Assembly: GCA_965221955.1 (NCBI GenBank)
Contig: CBDCTA010000022.1
Coordinates: forward strand, 224,001 to 288,000
Origin: Gammaproteobacteria bacterium
GTDB taxonomy: Bacteria; Pseudomonadota; Gammaproteobacteria; UBA4575
DNA length: 64,000 nt
Reading direction: 5' to 3'
Positions 17,399 to 60,060 of the stretch are shown here, in pieces (the stretch's first letter is position 1; every line of letters begins with the position of its first letter). Under the pieces are notes generated by a model. That model was not told the origin of the DNA, searched no databases, and worked only from the letters and a program-made list of their open reading frames with translations. A program made the translations under genes and the position numbers.

Positions 17399-18058
17399 CT
17401 AATTTGCAGGTGGTGGGGGCGGAGGTGGCGTTGCTGGTCTATTAAATTTTGTATTACTAGGGAATTTTTGGTTGGTTGCAGTAGTGTCTGAGTCGCCTCC
17501 ATCATTATCAGAAGAATCGCCTTGTACGTTTTGCAATGCTGAAAACCGTTGCAAGGTGAATGTAACTGGAGTAGCACTAATCTTAGTGCTGCCATTTGCA
17601 TCAACCACTTTAACTCCAATTGTATGTGTACCACGGTCAACATTTTTCAATGCCGTGATGGTACTGGACCCGCTATATACTTCCGTACCATCTATTGTTA
17701 CTACATATTTGTGGCCAACACGTGTTTGCAATGCAGGGGAAGCTTGGAAATTTATAGTGATGTTTCCTTGATTGTTTCGAACTGTAGAATCATTAGTAGG
17801 TGAAGTAATCGTTAGCGCAGTGTACTTATTCTTGTCTTCTAACTCTGTATTAGTAGAAGTAGTACGAGGTGTGCTTGCTAGGGGTTTAGTAGGTATAAGT
17901 GTGGGAAGTTCATCCGTTTTAACTGTTTCAGCATTCGTACACCCACTAGGTGAATCAGTATAAATGGTTTTACCATCAGCATCTTTGCAGGTATAGATCT
18001 CCGCCTGCACATTCGCACAGAATACAATCAACATAAAGATGATAACGCTACGTTGCAT
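17399..18058 (-). CDS. DUF4124-type secreted protein with Ig-like domain and Pro-rich tail
   Basis: Signal peptide then AEIYTCKDADGKTIYTDSP; start moved to ATG 18058 (GAGGGAG RBS); usual glnA-glnL spacer gene. Confidence 0.8.
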   Translation of the reverse strand: MQRSVIIFMLIVFCANVQAEIYTCKDADGKTIYTDSPSGCTNAETVKTDELPTLIPTKPLASTPRTTSTNTELEDKNKYTALTITSPTNDSTVRNNQGNITINFQASPALQTRVGHKYVVTIDGTEVYSGSSTITALKNVDRGTHTIGVKVVDANGSTKISATPVTFTLQRFSALQNVQGDSSDNDGGDSDTTATNQKFPSNTKFNRPATPPPPPPPAN

Positions 18059-18137
18059 ACACACTGCTCCCTCGTTATTACAACGAATATTACTCTTGAT
18101 ATTGAATAAGACCCAGGAAAAGTGTCTCAAGTTGCAT

Positions 18138-18202: not shown

Positions 18203-19612
18203 TTAACAGCTATAGTACAGCTCAAATTCAATTGGGTGAGTTGCCTGGCGTAAAGCAGTAACTTCATCCATCTTCAGTTCGATATAGCCATCGATACAAT
18301 CATCAGAGAATACCCCTCCAGCTTTTAGGAAGTCTCGGTCATTGTCCAAAGCCTCTAATGCTTGGTCGAGCGATGAACAAACCGTAGGAATGTTCTTTTC
18401 TTCTTCAGCCGGCAGGTCATATAAATCTTTATCGTTTGCAGGACCTGGATCAATTTGATTTTGAATACCATCAAGTCCAGCCATCATCATCGCTGCAAAA
18501 GTAAGATATGGGTTACCAGTTGGATCACCGAAACGCACTTCGATACGTCGTGCTTTAGGGTTTGATTCATAAGGAATACGTATCGACGCAGAACGATTGC
18601 GTGCAGAGTAGGCCAACATTACTGGTGCTTCAAAGCCTGGTACTAACCGTTTGTAGCTATTTGTACTTGCGTTTGAGAAGGCATTAATGGCACGTGCATG
18701 TTTGATGATGCCTCCAATGTAATACATCGCGGTTTGCGATAAGTTTCCGTAGAGATCACCTTGAAACAGATTGTTGCCTTCTTTAAACAGTGACATGTGC
18801 ACATGCATACCACTACCGTTATCACCTACAATGGGTTTGGGCATGAATGTTGCTGTCTTACCATAGTTGTGTGCAACATTGTGTACAACGTATTTTAAAA
18901 TCTGGTTCCAATCTGCACGTTCAACAAGTGTGTTGAATCTAGTTCCAATTTCACATTGTCCTGCGGTTCCTACTTCGTGGTGATGCACTTCAACCGCAAC
19001 CCCCATTTCTTCTAATACTTGACACATTGCAGAACGTAAGTCTTGTAAAGAATCGACTGGAGGAACAGGAAAGTAACCGCCTTTAACACCTGGACGGTGG
19101 CCAATGTTGCCATCTTCAAAATGTTTTTGTGAGTTCCACGCTGACTCATCGGAATCTACTTGAAATGATGCGCCAGACATTTCATTGCTCCACTTCACAT
19201 CATCAAACACAAAGAATTCTGGTTCAGGCCCAAAGTACGCCGTATCCGCAACACCTGTTGAGTTCAAATAGGCCTCTGCGCGTTTAGCGACTGAACGTGG
19301 GTCACGCCCATAACCTTCCATAGTTGAAGGCTCTAAAATGTCACAGCGTAGGATTAATGTAGAATCGCTAAAGAAAGGGTCCACCACTGCAGTCCCCTCA
19401 TCGGGCATTAAAATCATGTCTGACTCATTAATACCTTTCCATCCAGCGATAGATGAGCCATCAAACATTTTACCTTTTTCAAAAATGTCTTCTTCTACAG
19501 TTGAGGCAGGTACAGAAACATGTTGCTCTTTGCCTCTGGTATCAGTAAATCGGAAATCAACGAATTGCACATCGTTGTCATTGATCATTTTCATCACATC
19601 ACTCGCGGACAT
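18203..19612 (-). CDS. glnA: Glutamine synthetase type I
   Basis: [45 protein letters not shown] adenylylation site. Confidence 0.98.
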
Positions 19613-19719
19613 TGGATTCTCCTTAGCTACGACTCTTACGTTTTATAATGTAATTTTTACAGTGTAATTCTTATGGTTGTAACTAATTGCTAGTTACATT
19701 CATATACTAGGTGTACTTA

Positions 19720-19735
19720 AGCACATAGCGTGCCA
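19720..19735 (-). promoter_or_regulatory. Sigma54 -24/-12 promoter of glnA
   Basis: Minus strand TGGCACGCTATGTGCT (GG-N10-GC). Confidence 0.85.
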
Positions 19736-19821
19736 TTGCACTCTATTGAGGCCTGTACTCAAGCAACTGCGGCATTATACGCAGCTTTTGGTGAAGATGT
19801 AGGCGCACCAAAGTTTTTTTC

Positions 19822-19859
19822 TGCACCATTACAGTGCTTCAAAGCACCAAGTTGGTGCT
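19822..19859. promoter_or_regulatory. Tandem NtrC enhancer sites
   Basis: TGCACCATTACAGTGCT (19822-19838) and AGCACCAAGTTGGTGCT (19843-19859), about 100 bp upstream of the glnA sigma54 promoter. Confidence 0.85.
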
Positions 19860-20143
19860 TTAACAATTTAGTCTACAAACCACAATTGGATTGTTTGTCC
19901 AAACCTTTTTATTAAAGCAGAAGTACAGATATACAAATATTCCATTAAAAAGTAGTGGTTAAATACATAAATTAGAAGCTTTTAGAAAAATATGCTTTTG
20001 CCGAGATTTGTCACCAAAAGCCCTTTTGCGTAGACAAATTTAGTCCAAGTGCTAACTACGTCACATTCTTAAAATAGCATCATTTTCTTGTAACTAACTC
20101 TCCATCAGTAGGTTACTGAATTTACTCAATCCATCACTCAATC

Positions 20144-20159
20144 TGGCATAGGCCTTGCT
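20144..20159 (+). promoter_or_regulatory. Second sigma54 promoter, divergent from glnA
   Basis: TGGCATAGGCCTTGCT, near consensus TGGCAC-N5-TTGCW. Confidence 0.8.
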
Positions 20160-20225
20160 CTATAGATATTAGAAACTTTTGAATGTGCTCGGGATGAGCA
20201 TAGTAACCACGACACGGAGGTCAAT

Positions 20226-20345
20226 ATGGGCGTATCAACAGATGTATTCACAACTGTGTATATCGTTTGGATCGCCGCAAGTTTGGCAGCATTAGCTTGG
20301 GCTTATCGAAACGCACTTAAAGAAAAATTTTGTGGGCACAAGTAA
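20226..20345 (+). CDS. Unannotated 39-aa single-TM small protein
   Basis: GGAGG 5 nt upstream of ATG; MGVSTDVFTTVYIVWIAASLAALAWAYRNALKEKFCGHK*. Confidence 0.6.
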   Translation: MGVSTDVFTTVYIVWIAASLAALAWAYRNALKEKFCGHK

Positions 20346-20657
20346 TAAAGTTAAACCCGGTGAAAGTTTAGAAAGGATTCATTTATAAAGCACGGATGCT
20401 TTTTTACACACACGGAAATGTGTGCAATGAAATGTAGAGTGGTGCGATGCGTTGGCTAGCACAGTAGGGAACACTTAAGACAAGGATTGTCGCCTCTACA
20501 CTTTTCAATTTAATGAAGTTGTAACCTCAGGACGAGATACAACTTGCAAGGACGCAAAACTAGATAGCTCAAGATTGTTAATCAGGGGAGTTTTATCTAA
20601 ACCGACTTAGGGAAGAGGGCTGCGTGACAAGGATGTCTTTTTCGCAGCACCGATAGT

Positions 20658-20685
20658 AAAGGCAAGCAGCTCGCTTGCCTTTTTT
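20658..20685 (+). terminator. Intrinsic terminator of the GGA-rich RNA
   Basis: AAAGGCAAGC-AGCTC-GCTTGCCTTTTTT. Confidence 0.9.
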
Positions 20686-20787
20686 ATTTCTCACCAAAAT
20701 TTAAGAATTCTCCATAAATACTGCCATTTACTGGTAGCCGTTGCGACGCATCGCTATACTCACGCTGCAATCGTAGCCAGCAAAATC

Positions 20788-21711
20788 ATGTCAGAGACTC
20801 CAACTAAAAATAAGCTCATCAGCTTTCAACAGCTCATTCAAAGGCTCGAACAGTTTTGGGCCGCGCAGGGTTGTGTCATTGAGCAACCCTATGACCTGGA
20901 AATGGGGGCCGCGACCTTTCACCCCAGTACGTTCCTACGCGCCATCGGCCCTGAAAGGTGGCGTTCTGCTTATCCGCAACCTTGTCGGCGTCCCACTGAT
21001 GGGCGTTATGGTGATAACCCCAATCGTTTACAGCGATACTTTCAATTTCAAGTCGTACTGAAACCTTCTCCGGATAATATTCAAGACTTATATATAGAGT
21101 CGTTAACTTCTCTAGATATCGATCCTTTAGTGCACGACATCCGTTTTGTTGAAGACAATTGGGAATCTCCAACGCTTGGCGCCTGGGGCTTAGGTTGGGA
21201 GGTATGGCTCGACGGCATGGAGATTTCGCAGTTTACTTATTTTCAGCAAATCGGTGGTTTAGATTGCAAACCTGTTACGGGTGAAATTACTTATGGTTTA
21301 GAACGTATTGCAATGTATCTACAAAATGTCGATAGTGTTTATGATTTAGTTTGGTCACAATATGGTGAAGACAAAATACTTTATCGCGATGTTTATCATC
21401 AAAATGAAGTAGAACAATCTGCCTATAATTTTGAACATGCCAACACAGAAGCATTGTTTAAATACTTCGATGCTAGCGAGAAAGAATGTCAACAATTAGT
21501 AGAACATGAAGTGCCTGTTGCAGCCTATGACCATGTGCTTAAATGTTCACATGCATTTAATTTATTAGATGCACGCCAAGTAATTTCTGTAACCGAGCGC
21601 CAGCAATACATTTTACGTATTCGTAAGCTCGCCCAAAGTGTTGCTAATAGCTATTTTGAAAGCCGCGAAAAGCTTGGCTTCCCTCTAGAAGATAAAAGCT
21701 CTTCCTCATGA
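20788..21711 (+). CDS. glyQ: Glycine-tRNA ligase alpha
   Basis: [47 protein letters not shown]. Confidence 0.98.
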
Positions 21712-34819: not shown

Positions 34820-34895
34820 GCCGGAGTAGCTCAGTTGATAGAGCAACTCATTCATAATGAGTAGGTCAGGTGTTCGAAATCCTTATGCGACACCA
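34820..34895 (+). pseudogene. Degenerate tRNA (anticodon reads CAT; body resembles tRNA-Thr CGT)
   Basis: 76 nt ending ACCA; D stem GCTC/GAGC and anticodon stem ACTCA/TGAGT intact, but 3 of 7 acceptor pairs broken, D-loop GG lost, T stem poorly paired. Confidence 0.7.
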
Positions 34896-59937: not shown

Positions 59938-60022
59938 TCTGGTAATTCCGCTGTCATAGAATCCTTGCTTCCTTAGACCGGTAATTTTGCGCCCCTAGCT
60001 TTCACTAGGTTTGCCCTTTTCA
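59938..60022 (-). ncRNA. c-di-GMP-I (GEMM) riboswitch
   Basis: GGGCAAACC-TAGT-GAAA-GCTAGGGGCGCAAAATTACCGGTCTAAGG...TATGACAGCGGAATTACCAG matches the GEMM architecture. Confidence 0.92.
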
Positions 60023-60060
60023 GTAGCAGTATTACTCCTCAGTAATCAACTAACAGGAAC

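Follow-up and report, generated by a model that had tools for sequence, protein, structure and literature searches.

In the 64-kb stretch of gammaproteobacterial DNA considered here (hereafter the window, the genome it comes from being referred to as the own genome), the spacer between glnA and glyQ (19613-20787) harbours a compact unit, which reads as a candidate sigma-54-dependent transcript that may both encode a small membrane peptide and act as a decoy for the RNA-binding protein CsrA. An earlier note, made from the letters of this DNA without database searches, had presented it as a sponge-like RNA missing from the listed ORFs, with a possibly new link from sigma-54/nitrogen signalling to Csr carbon control. 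The spacer is bounded by glnA on the minus strand (18203-19612; 866.9 bits against an NCBIfam cut-off of 845) and by glyQ (20788-21711), which NCBIfam also confirmed, as it did the identities of ntrB and glyS.

The consensus -24/-12 promoter of that note is borne out, since TGGCAT-N5-TTGCT on the plus strand (20144-20159) matches TGGCAY-N5-TTGCW exactly; it is the only match without mismatch in the window, which contains 12 matches when one mismatch is tolerated against a mean of 7.3 in shuffled sequence. The -24 GG and the -12 GC stand at canonical spacing, as in other sigma-54-type units, rpoN is present in the own genome (232 bits), and the promoter is kept at all of the 32 loci where the unit was recognised, namely the 20 with the open reading frame (ORF) described below and the 12 with the RNA only. 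Downstream on the same strand, a 5' leader (20170-20225; start predicted) includes a 7-bp hairpin (20184-20202) whose loop reads GGGAT, as well as a ribosome site, GGAGG (20216-20220), which itself contains a GGA and lies 6 nucleotides (nt) upstream of a small ORF of 39 codons plus stop (20226-20345). A GGA-rich structured 3' region follows (20346-20657), with 10 GGA in 311 nt, and then the strong Rho-independent terminator that had been noticed from the outset (20658-20688), composed of a 10-bp stem (20658-20682) and a T run, giving a predicted transcript length of about 520 nt. A purely non-coding description does not survive, as the conserved ORF had been overlooked because it is shorter than the 60 amino acids (aa) from which ORFs were listed.

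Comparisons were made across 56 genomes from an uncultured gammaproteobacterial order, representing 11 genera, the family set being identical to the order set. As judged from its substitutions, the ORF is a gene under purifying selection: the pN/pS ratio (nonsynonymous to synonymous changes; 190 sequence pairs) amounts to 0.24 in the reading frame as compared with 1.02 and 2.16 in the other two, the variable sites distribute as 21/13/33 over the three codon positions and 11 residues are invariant among 18 aligned peptides. Such a protein-conserved ORF is what is expected from a dual-function RNA. A peptide profile search recovered it in 20 of the 56 genomes and 5 of the 11 genera. With some 19 hydrophobic residues at its core and a basic C-terminal tail, the product is a predicted single-pass membrane peptide, for which no family was found in Pfam or NCBIfam; a search of 5.8 billion proteins returned 36 peptide clusters, none named beyond 'hypothetical', and a protein atlas search with the peptide gave only scores of 0.86 or below. 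Matches of the peptide to TseB and FtsL were set aside as being at chance level (E about 0.1). Regarding its expression, the two GGA of the leader are separated by 24 nt and one of them belongs to the ribosome site, which we take to be the layout of a CsrA-repressed leader, so that CsrA may also repress translation of the peptide.

At the nucleotide level, BLAST located a single copy per genome in the other 14 members of the genus, where the full unit is 72-81% identical, and pieces in three further genera, with an identical order of parts at all loci read. R1, a covariance model of the last 125 positions, matched every one of the 20 ORF-type genomes strongly and exactly once (86-134 bits), and gave weak matches (23-29 bits) in 8 genomes of genus g7. 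Four of these weak-match loci (L104, L105, L107 and L108) present the same glnA-glyQ spacer, an exact promoter, a site resembling that of the integration host factor (IHF), a homologous upstream element and a GGA-rich RNA, and no peptide gene, and a fifth (L106) shows the promoter, the terminal hairpin and 12 GGA. One R1 match, in genome G050, was discarded as spurious, for it straddles the end of a Met-rich repeat gene. The sequence preceding glyQ was then retrieved from 29 further genomes, and the ORF-less form, 165-275 nt long with 6-12 GGA, proved to be present in 11 of the 16 g7 genomes and in the single g11 genome. Nothing comparable was seen upstream of glyQ in g3 (12 genomes), g4 (1), g10 (2), g5 (2) and five g7 genomes, the rest of which could hold a diverged copy. 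Altogether, the RNA is carried by 32 of the 56 genomes and 7 of the 11 genera, always in the glnA-glyQ spacer; since the ORF is missing from 12 of these 32 genomes, in which promoter, upstream element and GGA-rich RNA all persist, the RNA appears as the conserved core of the unit.

The predicted transcript contains 13 GGA, rather than the 11 or so counted initially: two in the leader (20192, 20216), one in the ORF (20269) and ten in the 311-nt 3' part (20375, 20394, 20414, 20468, 20484, 20530, 20550, 20587, 20611, 20631). Genome-wide, windows of 311 nt hold 2.79 GGA on average (standard deviation 1.84) and 0.28% of the 107,408 windows reach 10. A(N)GGA is the core of CsrA/Rsm ligands and its exposure as ANGGA in loops is their signature. 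In the minimum free energy (MFE) fold, whose z-score is -2.59 with none of 100 shuffles folding as well, 7 of the 10 GGA of the 3' part lie in hairpin loops. From 5' to 3' on the plus strand, this part displays hairpins at 20371-20380, 20387-20402 and 20407-20424, a domain closed by 20433-20439 and 20494-20500 and containing the hairpin 20479-20491, further hairpins at 20516-20545, 20546-20555 and 20561-20599, a single-stranded GGGAAG (20610-20615) and a hairpin (20619-20648) enclosing another one (20626-20637). The enclosing stems are found where they had been drawn, i.e. TGTAGAG at 20433 with CTCTACA at 20494, AAGTTGTA at 20516 with TACAACTT at 20538, and GCTGCG at 20619 with CGCAGC at 20643. 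The hairpins 20479-20491 and 20626-20637 resemble what we take to be the high-affinity CsrA ligand, ACAAGGAUGU. Pooling 31 of the RNAs, 48% of the 318 GGA fall in MFE hairpin loops compared with 14% of all bases, 69% are unpaired compared with 36% of bases, and an A occupies position -2 in 243 of 317. In a plain alignment, 9 of the 10 GGA of the 3' part are conserved in position, three of them in 20/20 sequences and the others in 14-19/20. Neighbouring sites are about 16-54 nt apart, a spacing that suits bridging by CsrA dimers.

Several observations nonetheless weigh against reading this anatomy as that of a decoy. The placement of GGA in loops is derived from predicted folds; dinucleotide shuffles of the 3' stretch reach 10 GGA in 75 cases out of 2000 (mean 6.2), making the enrichment modest; a crude scan of the own genome for GGA in hairpin loops does not place the locus among the 30 highest merged regions listed; GGA hairpins are no rarity in the own genome, being carried by a dispersed repeat family; and the canonical terminator is not seen outside the genus. 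Besides, RNAalifold applied to relatives, as the earlier note had proposed, gave a poor consensus on a plain MAFFT alignment, with 23 pairs of which 3 were compensatory. Taken alone, the GGA count is suggestive and not decisive, its weight coming from comparison. Because of the poor RNAalifold consensus, the hand-drawn helices were tested instead, and these do pair and covary. In the helices of the 5' half, 87.0% of the cells are paired, against 27-54% when the partner is slid, and 12 pairs have changed on both sides, a number reached by 0/500 shuffles; in the helices of the 3' module, 82.2% are paired, against 23-54% when slid, and 9 pairs have changed on both sides, which 22/500 shuffles reach. 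The two terminal helices are invariant and hence uninformative either way.

As for the 3' end, the terminator is kept throughout the genus save in G001 (14 of 15 genomes, the own genome included) and absent from the other genera, so that the RNA could run into glyQS there. Outside the genus, the RNA ends in a conserved GC-rich double hairpin devoid of T run (L016-L019, L053, L054 and RNA-only loci, e.g. L104 and L127). The formation of the 3' end must then differ outside the genus, whether by Rho, by processing or by read-through towards glyQS.

The dispersed repeat family deserves a description of its own. Its members, of about 60-70 nt, consist of hairpins with GGA loops and occur in at least 11 places in the own genome and in 12-13 in G001, G004 and G007, e.g. 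at C29:283153-283295, C6:3251-3326, C3:17873-17944 and C22:41164-41523, with 83-97% identity within and across genomes. It may be an element of the repetitive extragenic palindrome (REP) or miniature inverted-repeat transposable element (MITE) type and, if copies lie in transcripts, CsrA-type sites would have been added genome-wide. When other decoy candidates were examined in the own genome, C2:59871-60300 and C29:69671-70060 turned out to be small ORFs, C22:41164-41523 and C29:283150-283300 copies of the dispersed repeat, and the GGA-rich window C29:616701-621840 presumably an rRNA operon. A second exact sigma-54-type promoter, TGGCAT-N5-TTGCT, was encountered at C29:282837-283360 (locus L141, 538-1061), about 190 nt upstream of a hydrophobic ORF of 36 aa (C29:283045-283155), itself followed by eight hairpin GGA and a terminator; the ORF part is present in 14/14 genomes of the genus and the locus gives a weak match to the RsmY model (19.7 bits, E 0.1). 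The unit of the glnA-glyQ spacer is the only single-copy, conserved GGA-hairpin RNA found.

The csrA homologue presupposed by a CsrA sponge is present in the own genome (92 bits, with the typical 63 residues), and CsrA exceeds the Pfam cut-off (PF02599) in 52 of the 56 genomes, five CsrA-like matches being seen in G066. The combination of csrA with multiple A(N)GGA, many of them in hairpin loops, is that of known sponges. By contrast with this presence, none of the 56 genomes reaches the cut-off of 280 bits of the NCBIfam model for UvrY/SirA/GacA (NF007018), the best score being 178.8; the best protein of the own genome on this model (124.9 bits) looks like NarL (240.3 bits against a cut-off of 250). 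The GacA box is TGTAAG-N6-CTTACA, of which no exact copy occurs in the own genome, and the best approximation within 19613-20160 has 3 mismatches out of 12. Neither CsrB, RsmZ nor RsmY was found above gathering score in the own genome, where the best matches amount to 12.3 bits, none and 24.9 bits, respectively, none of them at the locus; the RsmY-model match, at C29:520150, is an ordinary 3' untranslated region (UTR) with two GGA. With CsrA present, and GacA/UvrY as well as CsrB, RsmZ and RsmY not found, the order has the regulator without the textbook antagonist genes and their activator. The Rfam check proposed at the start likewise returned no family for the RNA: on the plus strand of 19600-20800 there was no match up to an E value of 10, the minus-strand matches to HSUR and SSRC38 in this interval being attributable to chance. 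At gathering score, Rfam recognised in the window only a cyclic di-GMP-I riboswitch aptamer (59938-60025, minus strand; 81.6 bits against a gathering score of 35) and a tRNA gene (34820-34892, plus strand; 36.1 bits). Sponges of Hfq/Crc carry several A-rich AANAANAA motifs; a single motif of this CrcZ/CrcY type occurs in the 521 nt, inside the ORF.

Turning to the control of the promoter, the nitrogen link proposed in the earlier note proves weak. The divergent glnA gene has its own sigma-54-type promoter on the minus strand (19720-19735; one mismatch to the consensus), whose equivalent was found in all 20 ORF-type loci, and two sites of the form GCAC-N7-GTGC, presumably the NtrC-site consensus, lie 21 bp apart at 19823-19858, upstream of both promoters, at about 90-125 bp from that of glnA and 300-321 bp from the -24 element of the RNA. 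One or two such sites occur in 20/20 ORF-type loci at 284-420 bp from the RNA promoter, with one extra site at 494 bp, and they belong to the glnA promoter. What stands at the usual enhancer distance from the RNA promoter is of another type, namely a conserved element of about 50 nt (19999-20049, plus strand; approximately -171 to -121 relative to the predicted start) whose half-sites contain TGTCAC and GACAA. Its blocks are invariant across 20 loci, a homologous element exists in all 32, and TGTC/GACA words counted over the 32 loci culminate in the -200 to -100 bin (71, against 6, 15 and 19 in neighbouring bins). It is presumed to be the site of an enhancer-binding protein and is not NtrC-like. 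Between this element and the promoter, an IHF-like site, ATCAGTAGGTTA (20104-20115, plus strand), is predicted according to what we take to be the IHF consensus; its TCA-N-T...GTTA core is kept in 20 loci and seen in RNA-only loci too.

Seven strong enhancer-binding proteins are encoded in the own genome, of which only the one beside glnA-ntrB passes the NtrC cut-off. In a quick tree of such proteins from 5 RNA-bearing and 5 RNA-less genomes, the PilR orthogroup is found in 5/5 RNA-bearing and 0/5 RNA-less genomes and the NtrC orthogroup in 10/10, irrespective of the RNA; the RNA-bearing G019 lacks the L057 and L059 orthogroups, and the RNA-bearing g7 genomes lack an NtrX-like group. The own pilR gene belongs to a pilS-pilR-pilA operon, recognised by its 6TM_PilS, Sigma54_activat plus HTH_8, and Pilin domains. 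Strong PilS matches (at least 88 bits) come from 31 genomes, all RNA-bearing, which amounts to 31 of the 32 genomes with the RNA and none of the 24 without; within g7, 11 genomes have both the RNA and PilS and 5 have neither. The next PilS scores do not exceed 45 bits and correspond to proteins of about 420 aa also found in RNA-bearing genomes. PilR prefers TGTC repeats, and in four genomes the pilA promoter combines a TGGCAT-N5-CTG(T/A)A element with a palindrome, TGACA-N5/6-TGTCAC, located some 130 nt further upstream. The palindrome of the own pilA promoter and the upstream element of the RNA share a 9-mer, of which there are 30 occurrences in the genome, both strands counted. In the own pilR-pilA spacer (C29:440381-440700; locus L198, 3918-4213), the palindrome reads TGACA-N5-TGTCAC and the sigma-54-like element TGGCAT-N5-CTGTA, with an unusual -12. 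The pilA leader has 8 GGA per 250 nt, one of them at the ribosome site, and pilA may itself be a CsrA target.

The case for PilR is tempered by several points. It is one of co-occurrence among related, non-independent genomes, in which small genomes may simply have lost many things together; the 88-bit threshold was set after the bimodal list of PilS scores was known, and the shared 9-mer was picked post hoc; G008, a metagenome-assembled genome of 150 contigs that is 92% complete, has the RNA and no strong PilS match; the PilR-like gene of G019 is aberrant, with a partial AAA+ match and a long branch; and the L061 orthogroup, found in 5/5 RNA-bearing and 3/5 RNA-less genomes (8/10 in all), offers a rival activator. 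The L061 protein is an orphan enhancer-binding protein of the response-regulator type (C2:55003-56400; locus L199, 4003-5403), whose neighbours give no clue and in which no HTH_8 domain was found at E below 1e-5. Because of the post-hoc threshold, the kinship of the genomes, the possible joint losses, the odd gene of G019 and a TGTC preference that is presumed to apply here, PilR is retained as the foremost candidate activator at somewhat less than even odds, NtrC as an improbable one, and the remainder goes to another or to several enhancer-binding proteins.

From anatomy, conservation, coding signature, covariation, gene content and co-occurrence, we infer transcription of the unit, CsrA binding and sponge action, as well as a candidate activator. 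At a probability of roughly 0.6, the favoured reading is that a sigma-54-dependent transcript, about 520 nt long, yields two products, namely a membrane peptide of 39-43 aa and a 3' RNA resembling a CsrA sponge. Once activated, an enhancer-binding protein bound at 19999-20049 would open the sigma-54 promoter with the assistance of an IHF-type bend (20104-20115); the best candidate would be PilR from the pilin-sensing system PilS-PilR, NtrC at the distant glnA enhancer possibly providing a second input. The 5' part would be translated into the single-pass membrane peptide, unless CsrA bound to the two leader GGA prevents it. The 3' domain of about 300 nt, with its 9-13 A(N)GGA mostly in hairpin loops, would bind several CsrA dimers, either on the full transcript or after processing, and would thereby lower free CsrA and titrate it off its mRNA targets, as CsrB or RsmZ do. 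In the sister genera, the same 3' domain would be made directly from the promoter.

Three other explanations have to be set against this one. The unit could in essence be the mRNA of the membrane peptide, with GGA hairpins acting in cis, be it in CsrA-dependent control of translation, in mRNA stability or as an exonuclease-protecting 3' UTR, without global titration of CsrA. The purifying selection on the ORF and its strong ribosome site with two GGA nearby are in agreement with this explanation, and the second sigma-54-type promoter of the own genome, which also precedes a small hydrophobic ORF and GGA hairpins, suggests that the design recurs. Nevertheless, the hairpins of that second locus are copies of the dispersed repeat whereas the RNA here is single-copy, 12 genomes have the promoter and the GGA-rich RNA without any ORF to control, and 9-13 conserved sites in 230-313 nt are far above the 2-4 that we take to be usual for control in cis; on balance, the explanation is considered unlikely. 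Still more improbable is a structured RNA with some other function, i.e. with a partner other than CsrA, as a base-pairing RNA or as a leader read through into glyQS. The lack of a terminator before glyQ outside the genus would fit the latter, CTTAGGGAAGAG-GCTGCG does not vary over a length of more than 30 nt, which is beyond the need of a generic GGA loop, and Rfam has no matching family. Against it, a strong terminator intervenes in the window, glyQ has its own conserved -10-like box downstream of the RNA, the pattern of ANGGA in loops is typical of CsrA/Rsm ligands, and only one AANAANAA is found.

The remaining explanation bears on the input, as it would have NtrC at the shared glnA enhancer activate the promoter, the RNA then reporting nitrogen limitation to the Csr system. 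In its favour, the unit has glnA-ntrB-ntrC as its direct, divergently oriented neighbour, glnA stays next to it at all 32 loci, and the shared spacer shows NtrC-type sites in each of the 20 ORF-type loci as well as in RNA-only loci. Enhancer-binding proteins can act over such distances and in either orientation. These sites are yet remote from the RNA promoter and placed for glnA, conservation at -120 to -170 concerns another element, and NtrC exists in the 5/5 RNA-less genomes sampled whereas PilS tracks the RNA, so that activation by NtrC is rated as unlikely too. Within the glnA-ntrBC cluster itself, an ORF of 243 aa on the minus strand (17399-18130) is an unexpected insert between glnA and ntrB, for which NCBIfam gave no match at E values up to 1e-60.

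With respect to known systems, the RNA is akin to CsrB/CsrC and RsmX/Y/Z (Rfam CsrB RF00018, PrrB_RsmZ RF00166, RsmY RF00195) in its many A(N)GGA hairpin loops, its size of a few hundred nt and the presence of csrA in the genome, and its closest functional relatives appear to be the CsrB/RsmZ-type sponges, even though it matches none of their Rfam families (CsrB, CsrC, RsmX, RsmY, PrrB_RsmZ and others). Those sponges depend on sigma-70 and on a GacA/UvrY box, whereas here the promoter is of the sigma-54 type, the order has no GacA/UvrY orthologue at cut-off, an ORF is present at 20 of the 32 loci and Rfam gives no match. The RNAs CrcZ/CrcY, GlmY and NrsZ are also sigma-54-dependent, CrcZ being a protein sponge that offers A-rich motifs to Hfq/Crc; mimicry or base pairing is the mode of action of GlmY and Qrr. 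Together with Qrr1-5, they resemble the unit described here in their -24/-12 promoter, upstream enhancer and IHF site, and in the portions of text searched none was described as a CsrA ligand. RsmW is a small RNA with few GGA sites. In the passages available from two sources, it is an RsmA-binding RNA of Pseudomonas aeruginosa, which derives from the 3' UTR of PA4570 and is not classically Gac-dependent (PMC4950607; PMC13622538), and it is reported in one of them as iron-responsive (PMC13622538). Like the RNA here, RsmW is tied to a coding transcript; unlike it, RsmW is not sigma-54-dependent, and the two share no homology. Excerpts from further articles indicate that the 5' UTR of fimAICDHF in Salmonella and the flaA mRNA in Campylobacter titrate CsrA (PMC13501541; PMC4894983). 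These decoys belong to large structural genes, where the 5' UTR or the coding start bears the sites, and operate beside CsrB/C or with FliW, unlike the long dedicated 3' domain found here, a candidate decoy that also stands alone in sister genera. Along with RsmW, they show that coding transcripts can titrate CsrA or RsmA. The sections consulted of one of these articles also cover sigma-54 control of the Qrr RNAs in the Qrr/LuxO system and include statements on NtrC (PMC13501541). According to the extracts at hand, the dual-function RNAs SgrS/SgrT, Spot 42/SpfP and SR1/SR1P combine a small protein and a regulatory RNA on one transcript (PMC8916003; PMC8501984); they act by base pairing, unlike the sponge-like RNA here. 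In Pseudomonas stutzeri, RpoN is reported on pslA and nifA, not on rsmZ (PMC8249394). A full-text search at the level of listings, abstracts and passages yielded neither a sigma-54-dependent Csr/Rsm decoy nor a protein-sponge RNA encoding a peptide.

If the RNA is indeed a decoy, the reading can be carried further. In an order without GacS/GacA, whether lost or never acquired, PilS-PilR might drive the main CsrA decoy via sigma-54, so that the state of the pilus or of the surface, rather than the Gac signal, would set global post-transcriptional control; this broader scenario is a tentative and rather doubtful one. In one clade, the decoy could have been fused with a membrane-peptide gene, or have retained it, in which case CsrA could gate translation of the peptide and the latter could exert feedback on a sensor in the membrane, for instance PilS. 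With its GGA-rich leader, pilA would moreover close a feed-forward loop, with PilR switching on pilA as well as the RNA, which in turn lifts the repression of pilA by CsrA. Csr/Rsm decoys are the control point of a very widespread bacterial post-transcriptional network and, to our knowledge, their synthesis in Gammaproteobacteria is almost always described as GacA/UvrY-dependent. A genuine decoy at this locus would mean that the input to Csr can be rewired to an enhancer-binding protein and that CsrA control can be tied to a defined signal, either pilin or surface sensing or possibly nitrogen, and would be a concrete instance of an RNA that sponges up a protein while encoding a peptide. The 32 members, in two architectures, make up an RNA family that is new to Rfam.

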